NCBI GenBank assembly: GCA_964512835.1
Contig: CAZELA010000001.1
Span: forward strand, 233,372 to 297,371
DNA from: an uncultured Candidatus Saccharibacteria bacterium
GTDB taxonomy: Bacteria; Patescibacteriota; Minisyncoccia; Phycocordibacterales; UBA2100
DNA: 64,000 nt
Reading direction: 5' to 3'
Shown here: one piece after another, positions 1,705 through 43,686 of the stretch
Layout: every line of letters starts with the position of its first letter
Numbering within the stretch: position 1 is the stretch's first letter
The notes under the pieces: generated by a model
What the model was told of the DNA's origin: nothing
Seen by the model: the letters and a program-made list of their open reading frames with translations, nothing else
Databases searched by the model: none
Translations under genes and position numbers: made by a program

Positions 1705-2093
1705 ATATGCATCAGCTCTTTGGAGGTTGCATGCGGCACCTTGTCGTCCAGGACGTCGCGCTCGTCACGCTTGCAGAGCGTACCTGGCGTGCGCGCGGAG
1801 GATATGTGTATCCGCTGCGCGTCTGTACCGTTTCGTGCTCCGATACCACCACGGTGCGACTGATCGATGTCACAGACACGGTACGAACGCTCGGCTCATG
1901 GAATATAACCGAATACGCGGATCTGCCGGACGTATTCCGCCAGATCAGCCGGGTCGACCGTTTCTTTTCGGGACTGGTCTTTCATGAGCGCATCGAACAG
2001 GGTCAATGCTTTTGGGAGAGTGTGGAACCCGACACGCTTCGCCCATCCCGCATGTTCTCGCGTTCGTGGCGCGAGCCGTACAGCATGATCTGA
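1701..2093 (+). CDS. hypothetical protein
   Basis: 130-aa ORF (TTG start in track; ATG at 1731) with GC3-rich codon usage; followed by terminator hairpin at 2095-2127. Confidence 0.35.
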   Translation: MYMHQLFGGCMRHLVVQDVALVTLAERTWRARGGYVYPLRVCTVSCSDTTTVRLIDVTDTVRTLGSWNITEYADLPDVFRQISRVDRFFSGLVFHERIEQGQCFWESVEPDTLRPSRMFSRSWREPYSMI

Positions 2094-2094
2094 C

Positions 2095-2127
2095 AACCCG
2101 AACGCACGCGTTCGGGTTGTTTTTCGT
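2095..2127 (+). terminator. Rho-independent terminator
   Basis: AACCCGAACGCACGCGTTCGGGTTGTTTTTCG. Confidence 0.65.
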
Positions 2128-2139
2128 GTGGTACATTGC

Positions 2140-2964
2140 ATGTCAATGAAACGGGATTTCCGGGAGCTTACGGAGGGAAATGCGGCCCAACATAGATATG
2201 TATGTGTCGGACTCGATCCGGATCTCGATAAAATGCCTGCTCACCTGAGATCCCTTTCCGCGCGTGACGCTATCGTGGCATTCAATCGTGCGATCATCGA
2301 TGCAACGGCGTCCGTTGCCGCGGCGTATAAACCGAACACAGCATTTTATGAGGCGTTCGGTGCGGACGGGTGGGATGCGCTTCGCGAAACAACATTGTAT
2401 GCTCAGGAGCGCGCAGCGCACGCAACGGTTATTGCGGACGCAAAACGGGCCGATATCGGGAATACCAATAACGGATATGTGGCGGCTATCTATGAATACC
2501 TGCAGGCCGATGCCGTAACGTTGCATCCGTATCTCGGAAAGGAAGCGCTGCAACCGTTTCTTGATCGCGACGACAAAGGCGCATTCATCCTCTGTCGGAC
2601 ATCGAACCCGGGTGCGGGTGAAATGCAGGACTTGAACGTGGACGGGTCACCGCTGTACCAAACTGTAGCGCGTATGGTCTCACATGAGTGGAATGATAAC
2701 GAGAACTGCGGCCTTGTTGCGGGTGCGACGTATCCGGCCGACATCGAACAGGTGCGACAGATCGCCCCGACACTTCCGCTCCTGATACCGGGAATCGGCG
2801 CTCAAGGCGGAGATCTCGAGGCGACCGTGCGCGCCGCTCGCGGTGGGGTAACACTCATTTCCGCGTCCCGCTCCATCATCTACGCGTCAGATGGTGAAGA
2901 CTTTGCGACAGCAGCTGCGCGTTCTGCACAGGAGCTTCATGGCTCCATTATAAAAGCGTCGTAA
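2140..2964 (+). CDS. pyrF: orotidine 5'-phosphate decarboxylase (type 2)
   Basis: YVCVGLDPDLD and DAKRADIGNT motifs typical of type-2 OMP decarboxylase; ATG at 2140 within track ORF 2128..2964. Confidence 0.85.
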   Translation: MSMKRDFRELTEGNAAQHRYVCVGLDPDLDKMPAHLRSLSARDAIVAFNRAIIDATASVAAAYKPNTAFYEAFGADGWDALRETTLYAQERAAHATVIADAKRADIGNTNNGYVAAIYEYLQADAVTLHPYLGKEALQPFLDRDDKGAFILCRTSNPGAGEMQDLNVDGSPLYQTVARMVSHEWNDNENCGLVAGATYPADIEQVRQIAPTLPLLIPGIGAQGGDLEATVRAARGGVTLISASRSIIYASDGEDFATAAARSAQELHGSIIKAS

Positions 2965-2986: not shown

Positions 2987-3622
2987 ATGGACGAAGCACA
3001 TGTACTCGATGTTTTGCAGAAAGTAGGGGCATTCCGTGCGGGTCATTTTGTGTTTGTGTCGGGCCTTCATGCCGACACGTACGTGAATAAGAATGCGATG
3101 TATCCGTACACTCGCGAGATGTCGACGTTGTGTCGCGAGATTGCACAGCGGTTCAAAGGGCGAGGGGTTGAAGCGGTCGTCGGACCGGCGACCGGCGGCA
3201 TCATCTTGTCGCAATGGGTCGCGTATCATTTATCTGAGCTTGAAGGCCGCGAAGTGTATAGCGTGTACTCGGATAAGGATGGCGACGGGTTCGTGATCAA
3301 ACGAGGGTATAACGAATTGATAAAGGGTAAACAGGTGATTGTAGTCGAAGACCTTGTCACTACCGGAGGTTCGCTTCGGAAAGTTATCGAGGCGGCTCGC
3401 CAGGAAGGTGCGCATGTGCTTGCGGCTGTCGCTATTTGCAACCGTGGGAACGTTACGCGCGAGATGGCCGGAAACCCGCCCGAATTCATGTCTATGCTGA
3501 CTGTCGAGCTTGATCAGTGGCCGGAAGCGGAGTGTGACCTCTGCGCGCGGGGTATTCCGATCAATACCGATGTCGGTCATGGTAAGGACTTTTTACAAAA
3601 GCGAAGCACAATACTTTCATGA
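2987..3622 (+). CDS. pyrE: orotate phosphoribosyltransferase
   Basis: PRPP-binding motif VIVVEDLVTTGGS; follows pyrF. Confidence 0.85.
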   Translation: MDEAHVLDVLQKVGAFRAGHFVFVSGLHADTYVNKNAMYPYTREMSTLCREIAQRFKGRGVEAVVGPATGGIILSQWVAYHLSELEGREVYSVYSDKDGDGFVIKRGYNELIKGKQVIVVEDLVTTGGSLRKVIEAARQEGAHVLAAVAICNRGNVTREMAGNPPEFMSMLTVELDQWPEAECDLCARGIPINTDVGHGKDFLQKRSTILS

Positions 3623-3981
3623 AAAAGATCATTATTGCAGTTGTGGCGCTCATGCTTATCGGCGGAGCCGCGGTTTATATATACAAAGCACGGGAAGCCG
3701 CGGAATACGCTGCAATGCCCGCGCCGGCTGTCACGCAGTTGACCGCACCGGCCACCATGGCAGATGTTGCCATGCATGCGGGGGCCGAGAGTTGCTGGAG
3801 TGCCATAGACGGCAATGTATACGATCTGACAGGATGGGTTGCTGAGCATCCGGGTGGTGAGCGTGCAATCCTCTCCTTGTGCGGCAAGGATGGCACCGCT
3901 GCATTTCATGGTCAGCATCGAGACAATAAGGTCCAGGCCGATGTATTGGCCGAGTTCAAGATCGGCACGGTAGCGCAATAA
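3619..3981 (+). CDS. membrane-anchored cytochrome b5-like heme-binding domain protein
   Basis: N-terminal TM helix, then CWSAIDGNVYDLTGWVAEHPGG...AFHGQHRD (cyt b5 HPGG and second His); ATGA overlap with pyrE stop. Confidence 0.7.
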   Translation: MKKIIIAVVALMLIGGAAVYIYKAREAAEYAAMPAPAVTQLTAPATMADVAMHAGAESCWSAIDGNVYDLTGWVAEHPGGERAILSLCGKDGTAAFHGQHRDNKVQADVLAEFKIGTVAQ

Positions 3982-4067
3982 ACGCGCGATTGTGCTCATA
4001 CAACCTCCATAACGTGGAGTGATATACTGAGACAACTAGCAGTCTTAGGAATATAAAGCCTTTATCT

Positions 4068-4556
4068 ATGCGAAATCTTTTGTGGATCATTCTTGCGGTA
4101 ATCATCATCGGCGGCGGTTATTGGTGGTGGTCTATGTCTGCCCAGCCTACAGCGATGGTCAATGAGAACGCCGCATCTCCTGCACCGGTCACGGCCACAA
4201 CAACCCCGGAATCAGCCGTTACTACACCGGCTGCGACACCGTCAACGGTCACCGTTACCTACGACGGTAAAGCGTATTCGCCGGTTGATGTGACGATCAA
4301 GGCGGGTGATACGGTCGTGTTCAAAAACACCTCCGGCAAGAACATGTGGGTGGCGTCTGACGAGCATCCGACGCACACTGAGTTCGACGGTACATCGCGT
4401 GCAACGCACTGCGCAGCAGGATATGCCGGTGAAAAGCCGTTTGATCAGTGCAAGCCGGAAGCCGCAGACTACTCGTTTACGTTTGCTAAGGCGGGAACGA
4501 TTGAGTTCCACGACCACATCAACCCGAGCGCGCACGGTACGGTTACTATTCAGTAA
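4068..4556 (+). CDS. membrane-anchored cupredoxin-like domain protein
   Basis: N-terminal TM, low-complexity linker, then KAGDTVVFKNTSG...SDEHPTH...AKAGTIEFHDHINPSAHGTV resembling the cupredoxin-like/EfeO-type fold. Confidence 0.55.
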   Translation: MRNLLWIILAVIIIGGGYWWWSMSAQPTAMVNENAASPAPVTATTTPESAVTTPAATPSTVTVTYDGKAYSPVDVTIKAGDTVVFKNTSGKNMWVASDEHPTHTEFDGTSRATHCAAGYAGEKPFDQCKPEAADYSFTFAKAGTIEFHDHINPSAHGTVTIQ

Positions 4557-4562
4557 CGCTCT

Positions 4563-4919
4563 ATGAATCGTGATTCAGCGGAAATCATTCTGAGGATAGG
4601 GCTCGCGTTCGCGTTCCTGTATCCGCCGTTGAACGCAGTCGTGGACCCGAACGCCTGGATCGGCTACTTTCCTCCGTTCGTCCGGGGCATTGTGGACGAC
4701 ACGATCCTATTGCACGGCTTCGGCGTCATCGAGGTGATCATTGCGATATGGGTCCTCTGGGGACGGGCGATTTTCTGGCCGGCTCTCGCGGCGTTCCTGA
4801 TGCTTGTCGGTATTGTGGTGCTCGACCGCTCGGAATTCCAAGTTGTATTCCGTGATCTTTCGATCGCGGCGATCGCGCTGTATTTTGCGGTGAAATACCG
4901 ACCCGGCTCGATCCGATAG
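4563..4919 (+). CDS. DoxX-like small integral membrane protein
   Basis: 118 aa, 3-4 predicted TM helices, DoxX-like hydrophobic pattern. Confidence 0.45.
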   Translation: MNRDSAEIILRIGLAFAFLYPPLNAVVDPNAWIGYFPPFVRGIVDDTILLHGFGVIEVIIAIWVLWGRAIFWPALAAFLMLVGIVVLDRSEFQVVFRDLSIAAIALYFAVKYRPGSIR

Positions 4920-4930
4920 TACACTAGTCG

Positions 4931-4966
4931 CTCAAAGAAAAAGGGCTCCGCTCCGGAGCCCTTTTT
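4931..4966. terminator. bidirectional terminator between DoxX-like gene and trxB
   Basis: AAAGAAAAAGGGCTCCGCTCCGGAGCCCTTTTTCC. Confidence 0.7.
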
Positions 4967-4983
4967 CCGTATCAATGCGGCTT

Positions 4984-5967
4984 TTATACGGCGACCGCAG
5001 TGTCTTTGTGAACGAACATATAGATGTCCTCCAGGGCTTTTACGGCGTCTCCCGCAGCAATGTTGTTCTGGTGGTAGATACCGTCGGTGATGTCTCCTGC
5101 AGCCCATACACGGGGGTGTGACGTGCGCTGCAAACGGGGATCAACTTTGATCTGCTTAACCTCATTGAGTGCGATTGTGTCACCGAGCCATGCGGTGTTC
5201 GGAATAAGACCGATTTCCACGAATACTCCCGTTACCGGAAGCGTCGATTCCACACCGGACGCATCCTTCCACTTCATGCCGTTCACAAACTTGTCGCCGA
5301 GAATTTCCGTCGGTGCGGCGCTCGTCAGGAGTTTGAAATTCGGTTTTGACTTCGCGGCGGCCACGGTGATTTCGTCGGCCCGGAACGTTTCGGTCCTGTT
5401 GAGGAGCGTGACTGTTTTGCAGTAGGCCAGTAACTGCAGTGCGGTCTCGAACGCGGCGTTCCCGCCGCCGATGACCGCGACGTCCTGATCAGCGAACAGC
5501 GGTCCGTCGCAGGTTGCGCAGTAGGTGAGGCCCTTGTTATCAAATTCTGCGGCACCCGGAACGTCGAGCTTGCGGCGCTGCGCACCCGCGGCGACCAGCG
5601 CAGTCTTCGCCTTGTAGACCGTGCCGTTATCAACCGTGACCTCGACATGATCGCTGAATGTTTCAAACTTCGTTGCAAGCGCGGGGGAGACGACTTCGAG
5701 ATATTCGCCCTTGTATGCTTCGACGTGCTCTTTGAGCGCTTTTGCGAGATCGGCACCGGCGATCGCTTTCGTGCCGATCCAATTTTGAATTTCGCTGGAA
5801 ACATTGCTCTGGCCGCCCCATTCAGAAGTGATCTGAACAGTCTTCAGTTGTTTTCGAGCGGCGTAAATGGCGGCAGATGCACCTGCCGGGCCGCCGCCGA
5901 TGATGATGAGGTCGTACATAGCTATAGGATTAGTCTGAGCAGAATAGCACGGCCCGCACACGCTCAC
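4984..5967 (-). CDS. trxB: thioredoxin-disulfide reductase
   Basis: FAD motif IIGGGPAG, redox-active CATCDG, NAD(P)H motif GGGNAA. Confidence 0.85.
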   Translation of the reverse strand: MSVCGPCYSAQTNPIAMYDLIIIGGGPAGASAAIYAARKQLKTVQITSEWGGQSNVSSEIQNWIGTKAIAGADLAKALKEHVEAYKGEYLEVVSPALATKFETFSDHVEVTVDNGTVYKAKTALVAAGAQRRKLDVPGAAEFDNKGLTYCATCDGPLFADQDVAVIGGGNAAFETALQLLAYCKTVTLLNRTETFRADEITVAAAKSKPNFKLLTSAAPTEILGDKFVNGMKWKDASGVESTLPVTGVFVEIGLIPNTAWLGDTIALNEVKQIKVDPRLQRTSHPRVWAAGDITDGIYHQNNIAAGDAVKALEDIYMFVHKDTAVAV

Positions 5968-19941: not shown

Positions 19942-21293
19942 AGGCCAGCGGCATGTCGATGTTCCAGGTCATTTTGCTCTGCATATTCGGTGCAGGAGCG
20001 ATTGCCGGCGTGCTTATTTTTGCGCTTGCGGTCGGCAAAGGGAACTCGAGTTCGATCGGCAATGTGGTGATCTGGGGAACGTTTGACGGCAACACATTTA
20101 CCGACTCGCTCAGACAAATTCAGGATCAGGATTCGAGCATGCTCGGTGTTACGTATGTTCAGAAGGATCCCGATTCATACATGCAGGAGCTCACTGATGC
20201 GCTCGCGAGCGGTAAGGGGCCGGATCTGTTTATTATGCGAGATGATCAGGCACTCTCTCAGGAAAGTCGTGTAATCAAGATTCCGTATACGGCAAAGGTG
20301 GGACAGCAATCGCTCACGATGAACGATTATCAGACTATTTTCGCGGATTCGATATCGCCCTTCCTGACTCCCGAGGGCAGCATGGGCATTCCGCTTTTCA
20401 TTGACCCGCTCGTTCTCTATTGGAACAAAGACATGCTGAACACGGCCGGGTATGCGCGTGCGCCGTTGTATTGGGACGAGGTGCAGGACATGGCACAAAA
20501 GATCACTAAGCGTACAGAGACCGGCACGATCATAAAGGCGACCATTCCGTTCGGTCTGTACCGCAACGTGAACAACGCAAAGGAGATTCTGTCGATGCTT
20601 GTTATGCAGGCGGGCGGCCAGATCACCGGACGGGATCAGGACAACGTACTCCAGGCTGAACTTGCGCCTCAGGAGCGCGACGTTGCTCAGTCATCGCTTG
20701 CCGCACTGAGGTTTTATACTGAATTTGCCGATCCTGCGAAGCCCGGTTATTCATGGAATGCATCCTTGCCTGAGGCGCGAAAAGCGTTTATTGCGGGGGA
20801 CCTTGCGCTCTATATCGGGCATGCGAGCGAAAAAGACACGATCAGGGCTGCGAATCCGAACCTCAATATGGCGATCGCCGCGATCCCGCAGCGACGCTCC
20901 GCGACGACCGCGAGCAACGCCGGATTTACGTATGCATTCTCCATACCGAGGACGAGTAAGAATCAGACCGGCGCATTCACGGTTGCTACCACGCTCGCGA
21001 ACGGTCAAAACGCGCTCGCGCTTTCGCAAACGTTTAATTTGCCCTCTGCACGCCGCGACGTGCTCTCAAAACCTTTCACGACCGATCTCAATGATTTTAA
21101 TAAGCAGGCGATCCTGGTGCGTTCGTGGACCGACCCGAATCCGGCTCGCACGAGCGAGATCTTTCGCGCTATGATTGAAGACACGGTCTCCGGATCGATG
21201 CTTCTCGGCGAGTCTGTGCAGCGTGCAGACCGCGAGATTGCGGCTATCCTGGACGCATACAACCAGCAGCGTAATCAGCAACAAATACAATGA
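19938..21293 (+). CDS. membrane-anchored extracellular solute-binding protein (ABC SBP family 1-like, orphan)
   Basis: N-terminal TM anchor; sugar-SBP-like LVLYWNKDMLNTAGY...PLYWDEV; no permease or ATPase adjacent. Confidence 0.55.
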   Translation: MKASGMSMFQVILLCIFGAGAIAGVLIFALAVGKGNSSSIGNVVIWGTFDGNTFTDSLRQIQDQDSSMLGVTYVQKDPDSYMQELTDALASGKGPDLFIMRDDQALSQESRVIKIPYTAKVGQQSLTMNDYQTIFADSISPFLTPEGSMGIPLFIDPLVLYWNKDMLNTAGYARAPLYWDEVQDMAQKITKRTETGTIIKATIPFGLYRNVNNAKEILSMLVMQAGGQITGRDQDNVLQAELAPQERDVAQSSLAALRFYTEFADPAKPGYSWNASLPEARKAFIAGDLALYIGHASEKDTIRAANPNLNMAIAAIPQRRSATTASNAGFTYAFSIPRTSKNQTGAFTVATTLANGQNALALSQTFNLPSARRDVLSKPFTTDLNDFNKQAILVRSWTDPNPARTSEIFRAMIEDTVSGSMLLGESVQRADREIAAILDAYNQQRNQQQIQ

Positions 21294-21661
21294 AGACACG
21301 TACGGTGATAACTGCACATGTGCTCGTGGGAGCGATGGTCGCACTTTTGGGGGCGGATGTCGCGTTTGCGCAAACACAATCAGGGCTTCGTAACCCGCTC
21401 GAAGGGGGAGGCATCAGTACTATTCCGCAATTCATCTCGAGCGCCTTGAAAGTGATGGTTATGGTGGCGCTCCCGATTATTACCCTGTTCATGGTGTATT
21501 CGGGCTTTTTGTTCGTACTTGCACAAGGAAACCAGGAGCAGCTTGCGAAAGCAAAAACAAACTTCGTATACGTAGTCATCGGCGCAATCCTTATCCTGGG
21601 TGCGTGGGTCTTTGCGTCACTGCTTGGCGGAACCATATCCGAACTCACGAGCGGCACATGA
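21290..21661 (+). CDS. TrbC/VirB2-like (T4SS-pilin-like) small membrane protein, paralog A
   Basis: Signal peptide plus two hydrophobic helices; ATGA overlap with upstream gene. Confidence 0.5.
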   Translation: MKTRTVITAHVLVGAMVALLGADVAFAQTQSGLRNPLEGGGISTIPQFISSALKVMVMVALPIITLFMVYSGFLFVLAQGNQEQLAKAKTNFVYVVIGAILILGAWVFASLLGGTISELTSGT

Positions 21662-22062
21662 GGACGATACTGCGCATCGCACCGTTTCTGGCCCTCGCGT
21701 TGCCGTTCAGCGCTTCTGCGGAAGTTGCACATACGCTGCGCGACCTTGTCGGTCAGATTGTGAACCTATTAAACACGGCGACCGGCGTCCTGGTCGCTGC
21801 GGCGCTTGTCGCGTTTCTGTACGGCGCTGCCTACAACATGATGAAGGCGGGCGAACGTGGAAGCGGAGCCCTCAGGCAGTTTTTGGTCTGGGGTGTGATC
21901 ATTCTGTTCGTGATGGTATCCATCTGGGGCATCCTCAATGTACTTCAGCAGACGCTCTTCGGAACGGGTGCCGGCGGATCAAGCAGCGGCGGCTCCGGCA
22001 TCAACGGAAGCGGAGGATCGGGTGTGCGGAATGACCCCGGATCGAATATTATTTTCGAATAG
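21658..22062 (+). CDS. TrbC/VirB2-like small membrane protein, paralog B
   Basis: Signal peptide ...SASAEVAH; helices with FVMVSIWGILNVL shared with paralog D; Gly/Ser-rich tail; ATGA overlap with A. Confidence 0.5.
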   Translation: MRTILRIAPFLALALPFSASAEVAHTLRDLVGQIVNLLNTATGVLVAAALVAFLYGAAYNMMKAGERGSGALRQFLVWGVIILFVMVSIWGILNVLQQTLFGTGAGGSSSGGSGINGSGGSGVRNDPGSNIIFE

Positions 22063-22063
22063 T

Positions 22064-22390
22064 ATGGACCTGTCTACGGTCGTTGCACTGTTTAATATTG
22101 TCGTCGGGGGGATGCTGGTGATATCGATCCTCATGATGTTCGGCGGCCTGGGGCTCTGGTACGTGCGCCTCGGTACGTGGCCGACATATCGCGACGAAGC
22201 GATTGACTACATGCGGTGGGGAGTATCAGTGCTGTTCGTTCTTGTCGTGCTGCTTGGCATTGCGCAATACGTTCAGACTCACATGGCTCTCTCTATGCTT
22301 GCGCTCGGGGCAGTGGTCGCGGCCATTGTTGTGTACTTTGTCGGTACACAGCTTATGGCCGGAGGCGGAGACGAGGAAGAACACCACTAG
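22064..22390 (+). CDS. small polytopic membrane protein, paralog C (no signal peptide, acidic tail)
   Basis: Starts 2 nt after B's stop; 3 TM; C-terminus GGGDEEEHH. Confidence 0.45.
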   Translation: MDLSTVVALFNIVVGGMLVISILMMFGGLGLWYVRLGTWPTYRDEAIDYMRWGVSVLFVLVVLLGIAQYVQTHMALSMLALGAVVAAIVVYFVGTQLMAGGGDEEEHH

Positions 22391-22501
22391 TGGTTTGTGC
22401 AGACGCTTCCCGCTATCCACATTCATAAAAATGTGGCCTTGTACTCGTGCGTACACGGGATACGATTGAGGAACTAGTACTAACGTTATTTCTTTATTTT
22501 T

Positions 22502-22873
22502 ATGCGCAGAACGCTTATTCAGATCGGTTCGACAGCAGCGACCCTCGCTTTCGTAGGCCTTCCGTCACTCGTTGCCGCACAGCAGACGGCTGCACAGGGA
22601 CTCTTGGGTACGCTCGCGCTTGCGAACCGCATTCTCAACGGTTTGGTTGGTCTCCTCATTCTCGTCGCTATCCTCGCGTTCTTCTGGGGTTTGATCAAAT
22701 ACCTCTTCTCGGGAGGCGGTGAAGATAAGTCAGAAGGTCTCAAGCTCATGTTCTACGGTGTCATCGCGATCTTCGTGATGGTATCAATCTGGGGCATCAT
22801 CCGACTCCTTCAGAACACATTCGGTGTTACGCAGAACACGTCGATCACTCCTGACGGTATCCGCTCCTTCTAA
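22502..22873 (+). CDS. TrbC/VirB2-like small membrane protein, paralog D
   Basis: Signal peptide ...LVAAQQ; two helices; FVMVSIWGIIRLLQNTFG. Confidence 0.5.
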   Translation: MRRTLIQIGSTAATLAFVGLPSLVAAQQTAAQGLLGTLALANRILNGLVGLLILVAILAFFWGLIKYLFSGGGEDKSEGLKLMFYGVIAIFVMVSIWGIIRLLQNTFGVTQNTSITPDGIRSF

Positions 22874-22896
22874 GCTCGCTCTGATATTGCGGGCAT

Positions 22897-23202
22897 ATGG
22901 AAGCGGCAGCAACGATAGTCCAACGGCTCAACGACCTGATCATCAGGCCATTGATCCTGTTGGTATTTGCCGGCGGGTTCTTCCTGTTCATGTGGGGGTT
23001 GGTTGTGTTTTTGTGGAATTCGCGCGAAGGGGAAGTTGCGACCGAGGGTAAGCAGCACATGCTCTGGGGTATCGTGGGCATGTTCGTGATGATCTCGGTG
23101 GGCGGAATTCTTTCCATCATCCTCAACACCTTTGGAATCAATCAGACGAGTGCGACCGATACGAGTAATGCGCAGGGGTTCAGCAATGTGCAGTTTAGGT
23201 AA
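22897..23202 (+). CDS. small membrane protein, paralog E
   Basis: Two TM; MFVMISVGGILSIILNTFG homologous to B and D. Confidence 0.45.
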   Translation: MEAAATIVQRLNDLIIRPLILLVFAGGFFLFMWGLVVFLWNSREGEVATEGKQHMLWGIVGMFVMISVGGILSIILNTFGINQTSATDTSNAQGFSNVQFR

Positions 23203-42831: not shown

Positions 42832-43242
42832 GTGCACGGCATGAATAACGAACTCTTGTTTCCCGCACTTTCGACCATGATCGCGCTCATGGTGTATTAC
42901 TCGCAGGGCATCTTTGTATCGCTCGCCCGTCGCAAGCACGGTATTGCAGCCCCAAAAACAACCGGCAACGAGGCATTTGAAAACGTATTCCGTGTGCACT
43001 ACAACACGCTCGAGAATTTGCCGATTTTCCTAACATCACTCTGGTTCTTTGCGCTGCTTGTAAGTCCATATGTCGCAGGATGGCTTGGGCTCGCATGGTC
43101 TGTGGGACGAATCGGCTACATGTACGGCTACTACAAATCTGCGCAGACTCGTCACAGCTACGGTTCGGTGATCTCGTACCTTGCGCTGCTGCCGCTCATC
43201 GCGGGTTCGTTTTGGGGAATCATTTCGGGACTCATTCGCTAA
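42832..43242 (+). CDS. MAPEG family membrane protein
   Basis: Four TM helices with RVHYNTLENLPIFL (MAPEG R-x-H-x-N-x-x-E motif). Confidence 0.55.
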   Translation: MHGMNNELLFPALSTMIALMVYYSQGIFVSLARRKHGIAAPKTTGNEAFENVFRVHYNTLENLPIFLTSLWFFALLVSPYVAGWLGLAWSVGRIGYMYGYYKSAQTRHSYGSVISYLALLPLIAGSFWGIISGLIR

Positions 43243-43251
43243 CGAAATTGT

Positions 43252-43686
43252 ATGGAACTGCAAGTCGGCGTAAAAGTGCTCTTGAAGAATCGCGAGGGGA
43301 AGTTTCTGTTGCTCCGTCGAGCCTACGATCCGGAACACACGGTACAAAATAAGTGGGACGTGCCCGGCGGGCGCATCAATCCGGGTACGCCGCTCATGGA
43401 AAACCTTGCTCGCGAGGTGTCGGAGGAAACGGGTCTCGTGATGACTGCGACGCCTGTCATTGTTGCGGCACAGGACCTCTTGCCGAAACAGCTTGCACAT
43501 CGACATGTAGTGAGAATCACATACCTCGGAGCTGCGGACGGCGACGTACGTTTGAGCGAAGAGCATATTGAGTATCGCTGGTTCGACTTTTCGGAGATTA
43601 CAGCGCTTCCAAATCTCGACAGTTACTTTAAAAAGCTTATCGACGACGGTGTTATTTCCGAGGCAGTACTGCAGCACATGAGCTAA
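43252..43686 (+). CDS. NUDIX hydrolase
   Basis: Nudix box GGRINPGTPLMENLAREVSEETGL. Confidence 0.7.
   Translation: MELQVGVKVLLKNREGKFLLLRRAYDPEHTVQNKWDVPGGRINPGTPLMENLAREVSEETGLVMTATPVIVAAQDLLPKQLAHRHVVRITYLGAADGDVRLSEEHIEYRWFDFSEITALPNLDSYFKKLIDDGVISEAVLQHMS

Follow-up and report, generated by a model that had tools for sequence, protein, structure and literature searches.

A pair of adjacent genes, encoding a cupredoxin-fold protein with a membrane anchor and a small membrane protein of the DoxX family, recurs across the Patescibacteria and, in our preferred reading, specifies a small outward-facing redox module of the cell envelope in which the anchored protein is docked on the DoxX subunit. 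We put the probability of this reading at roughly 40%. The pair was studied in a 64,000-nt stretch (64 kb) of contig CAZELA010000001.1 from an uncultured Candidatus Saccharibacteria bacterium (the window, in whose positions coordinates are given unless a locus is named), where it follows the pyrimidine genes pyrF and pyrE and is preceded by a gene for a cytochrome b5, which would serve the module as an added or alternative relay. The Patescibacteria (candidate phyla radiation, CPR) are thought to lack electron-transport chains, and many of them live in oxic groundwater and soil.

The first-pass annotation of the window had described a trio of b5, cupredoxin-like and DoxX-like proteins co-transcribed with pyrE. 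The three open reading frames (ORFs) lie on the plus strand exactly where it had placed them (120, 162 and 118 amino acids (aa), respectively; Table 1). They are genuine genes rather than chance ORFs because the identical b5 protein is encoded on 24 public contigs with the same synteny in each, because the first searches returned 46, 82 and 365 homologues of the three proteins, and because the cupredoxin family comprises 261 clusters (50% identity) at E<=1e-30. Elsewhere in the window no further copies of the three genes were found.

The trio as such is not the conserved unit. In a species-level genome scan with a cupredoxin alignment (31 loci; A3 was used, A1 being too heterogeneous and containing a true amicyanin-like outlier), the next gene on the same strand after the cupredoxin gene is doxX in 24 loci. 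A metagenome scan with a DoxX alignment yielded 80 loci, 76 of them with enough upstream DNA, and the cupredoxin gene is directly upstream of doxX in 64 of these. The two genes are separated by a projected median of 4 nt, and by no more than 30 nt in 82 of 89 loci. These adjacency counts and short gaps indicate that the conserved, apparently translationally coupled unit is the cupredoxin-doxX pair; the b5 gene joins it only in the window's own lineage (loci L001-L008 and L081). The homologues and loci carry Patescibacteria names, mostly of the Paceibacteria type (such as Kaiser-, Adler-, Nomura- and Parcubacteria), and the window's organism is placed in the Patescibacteria on this basis. Many of the loci originate from Hainich groundwater. 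Outside the clade in which it is linked to pyrFE, trxR, ftsZ and ftsA, the pair sits in unrelated contexts, and at least nine species-level loci share a different neighbourhood with pilus genes, a ComF-like gene, endonuclease V and malic enzyme. In the literature library searched we found no paper linking DoxX with a cupredoxin and nothing useful on Patescibacteria and cytochrome b5, CPR and plastocyanin, or NACHO and DoxX, and the CPR papers on oxic adaptation and on the metabolic platform do not mention these genes.

The cupredoxin-like protein consists of a transmembrane (TM) helix (~residues 2-24), a low-complexity linker and a beta-sandwich (~58-162). Its own match to PF13473 is modest (28.2 bits against a cut-off of 27, residues 52-99 only), several homologues carry precomputed PF13473 or PF00127 matches, and the family profile matches amicyanin and plastocyanin in the PDB at 1.5e-9. 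The AlphaFold2 (AF2) model (predicted local distance difference test, pLDDT, 78) is matched by Foldseek to the same two proteins with a probability of 1.00 and a TMt of 0.6-0.7, and amicyanins were again returned when the His-rich half alone was used as the PDB query. The cupredoxin fold assigned at first is therefore upheld by these matches; the C-terminal type-1 copper ligands are absent. Among 142 representatives of the 50%-identity clusters, the position of the type-1 Cys (149) is occupied by Asn in 110 and by Asp in 31, Asp being present in the window protein, and the C-terminal loop (151-156) is variable and has no conserved His or Met. For the N-terminal His ligand site the alignments disagree: MAFFT gives H103, HMMER puts amicyanin H56 on H114, and the ungapped register gives the conserved Met93. 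The protein was thus rejected as a type-1 blue copper protein, the Cys ligand being replaced by Asn/Asp and the loop His and axial Met not being conserved.

A lack of metal ligands had been named in advance as a sign of a purely structural domain. The domain is nonetheless probably more than structural, because a different set of residues is invariant. W94, H100, P101, H103, H114, C115, D126, C128, H148 and H150 are each kept in 138-142 of the 142 representatives (139-142 if W94 is left aside), in the motifs W94, H100-P-x-H103, H114-C115, D126-x-C128 and H148-[N/D]149-H150. Most of them (H100, H103, H114, C115, D126 and C128) lie in an insertion of ~35-40 residues between strands, and the former type-1 Cys position has H148 on one side and H150 on the other. 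This set suggests a different, uncharacterised metal site, most likely a His-ligated (type-2-like) centre for copper or another metal together with a disulfide. The source annotations of the family read 'plastocyanin', 'hypothetical' or nothing, and cluster look-ups added no other name. As the defining type-1 ligand tests fail, the protein should not be filed as plastocyanin or amicyanin; it represents an uncharacterised cupredoxin subfamily with an invariant site of its own. The His-rich domain was also seen fused to dienelactone hydrolase, CHRD and MliC domains and as tandem copies in a protein of 1082 aa (P0350, L128:4001-5284; P0323; P0356; P0385). The dienelactone-hydrolase fusion has no DoxX neighbour, and neither the fused domains nor the context of that fusion gave a functional clue.

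An outward-facing site of this kind could serve metal handling: the cupredoxin-like protein would bind, oxidise or reduce copper or iron for uptake, export or delivery, with DoxX as membrane partner or channel and b5 as a metalloreductase, in the manner of CopC/CopD, EfeO- or FtrB-type cupredoxins, or CupA. We regard this as unlikely. It would fit the invariant His-rich site on an outward-facing beta-sandwich, CupA is among the Foldseek matches (rank 34), and DoxX genes occur in copper- and gold-induced operons of other bacteria. A VIT1-family gene stands directly 5' of the pair in L009 and L010, but this adjacency is limited to one lineage. CopA, CopZ and other metal transporters are not visible in the ORF list of the window, a metal channel is hardly to be expected of a 118-aa DoxX protein whose invariant residues include no His, Cys or Met, and the bis-His b5 that replaces the cupredoxin in some lineages is an electron carrier, not a metal chaperone. 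Faint similarities to EfeO and CopI in NCBIfam (E ~0.01, not significant) would point the same way as CupA; together with a match to RodZ, they were treated as noise.

DoxX, the partner in the pair, is recognised at the level of its family. The window protein scores 22.9 bits against PF07681, just below the cut-off of 23.6, whereas each of the 30 aligned relatives matches this family (E<0.01; best 8.2e-11). Precomputed PF07681 matches are also attached to many relatives, and the membership holds for the family. The AF2 model (pLDDT 85) has four long helices (3-27, 46-66, 71-87 and 92-111). R11, G13, P29, W32, P37, G54, E57 and R97-D98 are invariant; R11 at the start of helix 1 and the acidic E57 in helix 2 are, in our own uncurated reading of the Pfam profile, presumably hallmarks of DoxX. 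The alignment contains no invariant His or Cys. The only confident structural match of the model is NACHO/TMEM35A (PDB 9H9E chain B; TM-score 0.68-0.75, probability 1.00, root-mean-square deviation 3.2 A over ~130 columns, 14% identity), a protein that we take to be classified in the DoxX family; a sequence-profile search of the PDB gave no match. DoxX-family proteins have repeatedly been tied to envelope redox functions, oxidative stress and non-cytoplasmic partners. A DoxX-SodA-SseA complex is reported from Mycobacterium tuberculosis, in which DoxX is associated with superoxide dismutase and a rhodanese-type sulfurtransferase, and DoxX genes lie in operons induced by hypochlorite, copper or gold in other bacteria. 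The thiosulfate:quinone oxidoreductase DoxD/DoxA was considered and rejected, since PF04173 (DoxD) is matched by one of the 30 members (E 0.009) and the partners here are a cupredoxin or b5, not DoxA. No SodA- or SseA-type genes were noticed beside the pair in ~120 loci, for which the screen was limited to profiles of genes from the window itself. The window protein is a small member of the family with a new kind of partner.

Membership in this family also raises the possibility of an energy-related electron outlet. DoxX would bind scavenged quinone, as DoxD does, and wire cytoplasmic reducing power to an outward copper or heme centre at which O2 or external acceptors are reduced; a fermentative cell would thereby have a minimal oxidase or a conduit for extracellular electron transfer. 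Partial respiratory modules have been reported in CPR bacteria, and the former type-1 Cys position lies within an H-x-H motif, an arrangement that resembles multicopper oxidases and NirK; however, a single His-type centre that has no type-1 relay is not a known oxidase design. The DoxX model shows weak, low-probability echoes of the vitamin-K-binding helix bundles VKOR and GGCX, but these matches are not significant (E>4), and no NADH dehydrogenase, quinone-synthesis or other respiratory gene was noticed in the ORF list of the window or in ~120 related loci. In this form the proposal seems quite improbable to us. We give no better odds to a role outside redox chemistry, in which the His/Cys/Asp set would hold structural zinc or make up a small site for hydrolysis or binding. 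The protein would then work at the surface as an adhesin or an enzyme, with DoxX as no more than its NACHO-like membrane chaperone or anchor. The loss of the type-1 copper site, the match to the NACHO assembly factor and the fusions to dienelactone hydrolase, CHRD and MliC are in keeping with such a role. On the other hand, when five His on a cupredoxin scaffold are conserved almost without exception, a metal site for catalysis or redox chemistry is the more typical case, and in sister lineages the same slot is held by a heme b5.

The b5 protein itself is an unremarkable representative of a known domain family; what is unusual is its host. It matches PF00173 over profile positions 1-73 of 74 (75.4 bits against a cut-off of 23.7, E 3.7e-21) and is built of an N-terminal TM helix (~residues 4-22) after Met-Lys-Lys, an Ala/Pro/Thr linker and a heme domain (46-118). 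H77 (of HPGG), H100, C59 and C88 are invariant among 32 aligned homologues; the second axial His is expected ~23-24 residues after the first, and both coincide in the alignment with the axial ligands of flavocytochrome b2 (those of HPGG and of ...EPLH), so that the heme ligands are retained as had been supposed, and both Cys align with those of the bacterial b5 1CXY. The protein is predicted to bind heme b; no heme biosynthesis genes were seen in the ORF list of the window. Like the cupredoxin, it has an N-terminal TM helix with a positive N-terminus and a conserved Cys pair in its globular domain, of a sort that seems typical of extracytoplasmic proteins. From these features both domains are predicted to face outward from N-terminal membrane anchors, and the topology of the two proteins, like the assignment of all three to b5, cupredoxin fold and DoxX, agrees with what was first described.

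The loci with b5 and cupredoxin form one subclade of the cupredoxin tree, which indicates a single, lineage-specific insertion of b5 between pyrE and the cupredoxin gene. In addition, three more distant b5 relatives (45-49% identity; L038, L040 and L125) are found in the order pyrF-pyrE-b5-DoxX-purH ... trxR-ftsZ(-ftsA), that is, b5 takes the place of the cupredoxin directly before the DoxX gene in the same chromosomal slot. The DoxX proteins of these loci share R11, G13, P29, W32, P37, G54, E57, R97 and D98 with that of the window. Other b5 relatives occur in unrelated contexts.

It had been proposed that the trio forms an electron route tied to pyrimidine biosynthesis, re-oxidising for example the acceptor of dihydroorotate dehydrogenase (DHOD). 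Pyrimidine genes do recur near the pair, in three arrangements. In the window's broad clade, 29 of the 42 informative metagenome loci have pyrE immediately 5' of the pair (median gap ~48 nt), usually in the order pyrF-pyrE-cupredoxin-doxX. In two Paceibacteria genomes (L013:1677-12471 and L018:2-9234) the pair is embedded in a complete pyrimidine cluster of carA-carB-cupredoxin-doxX-NUDIX-PIF1-like helicase-secreted protein-pyrC-DHOD-like-pyrE. In L026 and L029 the pair is followed by a second DoxX gene, a flavoprotein gene in some cases, and shortly downstream by pyrE. A MutT-like NUDIX gene, often with overlapping stop and start codons, follows doxX in about nine species (L013, L018, L019, L020, L021, L024, L028, L031 and L037; for example L013:6847-7272), directly after the cupredoxin gene in L031; in the window's clade a NUDIX gene lies instead upstream of pyrF (591-1055). 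The recurrence of NUDIX and pyr genes amounts to a mild association with nucleotide metabolism.

This association does not support an electron route, because pyrE and pyrF act after the redox step of the pathway, because tblastn detected no pyrD (nor pyrC or carAB) in the window, and because the DHOD-like protein of L013 and L018 carries a class-1-type motif and has no membrane anchor. That protein is very divergent, with a Cys-base, class-1-like NFSCPN (N-x-S-C-P-N) motif, and falls into no NCBIfam class, all scores being far under the cut-offs. Class 1A enzymes use fumarate or O2. Moreover, pyrD, pyrC and carAB do not adjoin pyrFE in the window's clade, b5 is confined to one subclade, and pyrE lies within 6 kb in only six of the 31 species-level loci, the other 25 having no pyr gene within that distance. 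Inherited gene order is the simplest explanation of the adjacency to pyrFE, since the same block, pyrF-pyrE-[X]-doxX ... trxR-ftsZ-ftsA, retains trxR, ftsZ and ftsA throughout the clade. The tie to the pyrimidine genes thus looks positional rather than functional, and the specific coupling is probably not real; we consider it highly improbable.

We return to the envelope redox module. The analysis shows the gene structure, the folds, the ligand patterns, the conservation of the pair, the distribution of b5 and the synteny. The module is suggested by the fact that both proteins found before DoxX are outward domains of the one-electron type and that the DoxX family is tied to envelope redox and stress; metal binding, a physical complex, the direction of electron flow and the physiological role are what we infer beyond that. 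The cupredoxin-fold protein would be a single-pass, N-terminally anchored protein outside the membrane that has lost the blue-copper site and kept five His, one Asp and two Cys. The helix bundle of DoxX may hold one or more outward-facing redox proteins by the membrane anchor and give them a connection on the membrane side; docking of this kind is suggested by the NACHO-like fold, NACHO having been solved with a client subunit. The metal or heme domain would pass electrons one at a time to or from an extracellular partner, most likely so that a cell that has no respiratory chain can deal at its surface with oxidants derived from oxygen or with redox-active metal ions. In this module b5 would be a second outward-facing one-electron carrier, able to take the cupredoxin's position before DoxX as it does in the sister lineages, and the pyrF-pyrE neighbourhood would reflect inherited gene order and operon hitch-hiking.

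Several observations weigh against this reading. The evidence for the metal site is its conservation, and AF2 is least confident in the very insertion that holds most of the invariant residues (mean pLDDT 62-74, residues 91-130). DoxX has no invariant His or Cys able to hold a cofactor, and neither a cytoplasmic donor nor a quinone pathway was identified. The pair is not universal, 12 of the 76 DoxX loci having no cupredoxin and seven of the 31 cupredoxin loci no DoxX. The DoxX proteins of L038, L040 and L125 are only 24-26% identical to that of the window, and the argument that b5 and cupredoxin are interchangeable partners may therefore compare two different cassettes. Finally, the return of pyr genes in three different arrangements makes a nucleotide-related role possible.

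The features of the region are collected in Table 1. The ATG of b5 (3619-3621) overlaps the TGA of pyrE (3620-3622) as ATGA, a 4-nt overlap that can be read directly in the sequence and had been noted at first. The 86-nt spacer between b5 and the cupredoxin gene has no terminator-like structure (z -1.9; 7 of 200 shuffles fold equally well), and doxX starts 6 nt past the cupredoxin stop. Upstream, a hairpin (-23.1 kcal/mol, z -5.2; none of 200 shuffles folds equally well) closes the preceding NUDIX/shikimate-kinase unit and sets the 5' boundary of the operon, of which pyrF is the first gene (mechanical ORF start 2128; 272 aa as called on public contigs). Downstream, a second strong hairpin is likely a bidirectional terminator common to doxX and the convergent trxR-like gene. 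A single transcript of five genes from pyrF to doxX is plausible given the overlap, the lack of an internal terminator and the two bracketing hairpins, and the co-transcription with pyrE proposed at the outset is thus plausible too. A sigma-70 scan found no plus-strand promoter site in the region; the host may use other signals. Beyond the trxR-like gene, ftsZ and ftsA follow downstream on the opposite strand; the trxR-like gene belongs with them to a conserved synteny block, and any functional tie would be putative.

Table 1. Genes and signals around the cupredoxin-doxX pair (window positions).
Feature	Position	Strand	Basis
Intrinsic-terminator-like hairpin	2092..2121	+	13-bp stem and T run
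pyrF (orotidine monophosphate (OMP) decarboxylase)	2146..2964	+	PF00215 1.2e-31; TIGR02127 247 bits, above cut-off
pyrE (orotate phosphoribosyltransferase)	2987..3622	+	TIGR01367 138.7 bits, slightly under the cut-off of 150; PF00156
Membrane-anchored cytochrome b5	3619..3981	+	PF00173; alignments to flavocytochrome b2 and 1CXY
b5-cupredoxin spacer, 86 nt	3982..4067	+	Terminator-site scan: no site
Membrane-anchored cupredoxin-fold protein	4068..4556	+	PF13473, family profile, AF2 model, Foldseek
DoxX-family four-helix membrane protein	4563..4919	+	PF07681 family matches, AF2 model
Strong hairpin, A-tract on one side and T-tract on the other	4937..4967		-23.9 kcal/mol, z -6.2, 0/200 shuffles
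Thioredoxin-reductase/AhpF-like flavoprotein (trxR-like), convergent neighbour	4984..5919	-	Profile matches, synteny

Other observations were made around the pair and in the window. In two Adlerbacteria genomes (L009:3116-4647 and L010:2733-4208) genes for a sortase and a VIT1-family iron/manganese transporter lie directly 5' of the pair; VIT1 was rejected as a general metal link because its adjacency to the cupredoxin gene occurs in one lineage only, a third case (L012) being a low-complexity artefact. Close DoxX-like genes not accompanied by a cupredoxin were seen in L054, L056, L068 and L086 (e.g. L086:1214-2504), with a 1-nt gap after a gene that reads as 6-phosphogluconate-dehydrogenase-like, itself after a glucose-6-phosphate-dehydrogenase-like gene. 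In L030:3551-5110 and L032:5882-7359, both labelled 'uncultured archaeon', a cupredoxin gene that has no DoxX partner is convergent with a Pyr_redox_2 flavoprotein gene and adjoins GH15 and glucose-dehydrogenase genes, which may reflect mislabelling or transfer beyond the Patescibacteria. A second, longer DoxX-like gene (151-158 aa; PF07681 21.9 bits, under the cut-off) directly follows the first in L026:6877-7332, L029:6696-7169, L097:5360-5836 and L110:5372-5827. A membrane-anchored secreted protein (183-202 aa, two conserved Cys) recurs just 5' of the pair or of a lone DoxX (L013:479-1036, L029:4929-5486, L097:4391-4999 and L110:3930-4481); the L097 copy has no Pfam match.

Within the window, an ORF of 120 aa (1731-2093) between the shikimate kinase gene and the hairpin 5' of pyrF is annotated as a gene in every public contig and has no Pfam match. 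A run of small proteins (100-150 aa, each with two hydrophobic helices) at 21290-23202 presumably resembles, by appearance, conjugative or type-IV pilin-like (TrbC/VirB2-type) proteins. At 42832-43686 a 136-aa membrane protein, MAPEG-like by appearance, is followed by a second NUDIX gene, of the same kind as the one after doxX in L013 and L018.

The predicted cassette of an outward-facing metalloprotein and DoxX, conserved across hundreds of 50%-identity clusters and hundreds of ultra-small Patescibacteria, is a concrete candidate for the handling of oxygen, oxidants or redox metals at their cell surface. For the DoxX family, which is widespread and stress-linked, it offers an unusually simple system of 118 aa and one partner, or b5 as the alternative. 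The cupredoxin variant, in which the fold persists, the Cys, loop His and Met of the blue-copper site are gone and an invariant set of five His, one Asp and two Cys has appeared, would be of interest for metalloprotein chemistry if it binds copper. A bolder proposal, which we hold to be rather unlikely, is that the pair, with b5 as a substitute or additional head, is an unrecognised and widespread minimal electron outlet of the Paceibacteria, in which DoxX wires reducing power to an outward all-His copper centre of a new type. In evolution such a centre could be related to the copper sites that lie between domains in multicopper oxidases and NirK, although it would be built inside a single domain, and it could reduce O2, superoxide or external acceptors. 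If this were true, CPR bacteria now regarded as purely fermentative would possess a sink resembling respiration, and a first mechanism that is simple and testable would be at hand for the DoxX family.

Comparison with known systems places each protein near characterised ones. The heme domain of flavocytochrome b2 and the b5/b558 of Ectothiorhodospira vacuolata (PDB 1CXY) share with the window b5 the HPGG motif, both axial His, a domain of ~75 residues and the Cys pair, which in 1CXY we take to form a disulfide; unlike them, the window protein has an N-terminal membrane helix with an Ala/Pro/Thr tether, and its gene lies in the pyrFE operon of a patescibacterium. The type-1 blue copper proteins amicyanin and plastocyanin have the cupredoxin beta-sandwich in common with the pair's first protein, and the C-terminal strands align well (YS.TFT.aGTy.YH.). 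However, it differs from them in the Asn/Asp in place of Cys, the lack of Met, the insertion of ~35-40 residues, the N-terminal anchor and a first-ligand position that is apparently Met93. At the level of motifs, H148-x-H150 around the type-1 Cys position presumably recalls the H-C-H of multicopper oxidases and the H-C of NirK, and H-P-x-H presumably recalls the signature H-P-x-H-x-H. An inter-domain copper site of that type was rejected, since H148-x-H150 is present but the protein has a single domain and no type-1 centre; NirK is only a distant Foldseek and profile match. CupA of Streptococcus pneumoniae, a membrane-anchored Cu(I) chaperone, is alike in its N-terminal anchor, cupredoxin fold and non-type-1 metal site; it has Cys and Met ligands and works with CopA, whereas the window protein has conserved His, Asp and Cys and is partnered with DoxX.

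NACHO/TMEM35A is likewise a small helical membrane protein and was solved bound to a client subunit, but unlike the window DoxX it is a eukaryotic assembly factor of the endoplasmic reticulum. In DoxD/DoxA, in DoxX-SodA-SseA of M. tuberculosis and in the DoxX operons responding to hypochlorite, copper or gold, a small DoxX is genetically paired with an extracytoplasmic component in a setting of envelope redox or stress, as it is here. The known partners are DoxA, SodA, SseA and DUF2282/DUF692/DUF2063 proteins, whose genes were not noticed beside the window DoxX, and DoxD/DoxA uses quinone, whereas the host of the window is not known to make quinones. In contrast to all of these, the partner in the present system is a cupredoxin-fold protein or a b5, and the DoxX protein, with 118 aa, is at the small end of its family.

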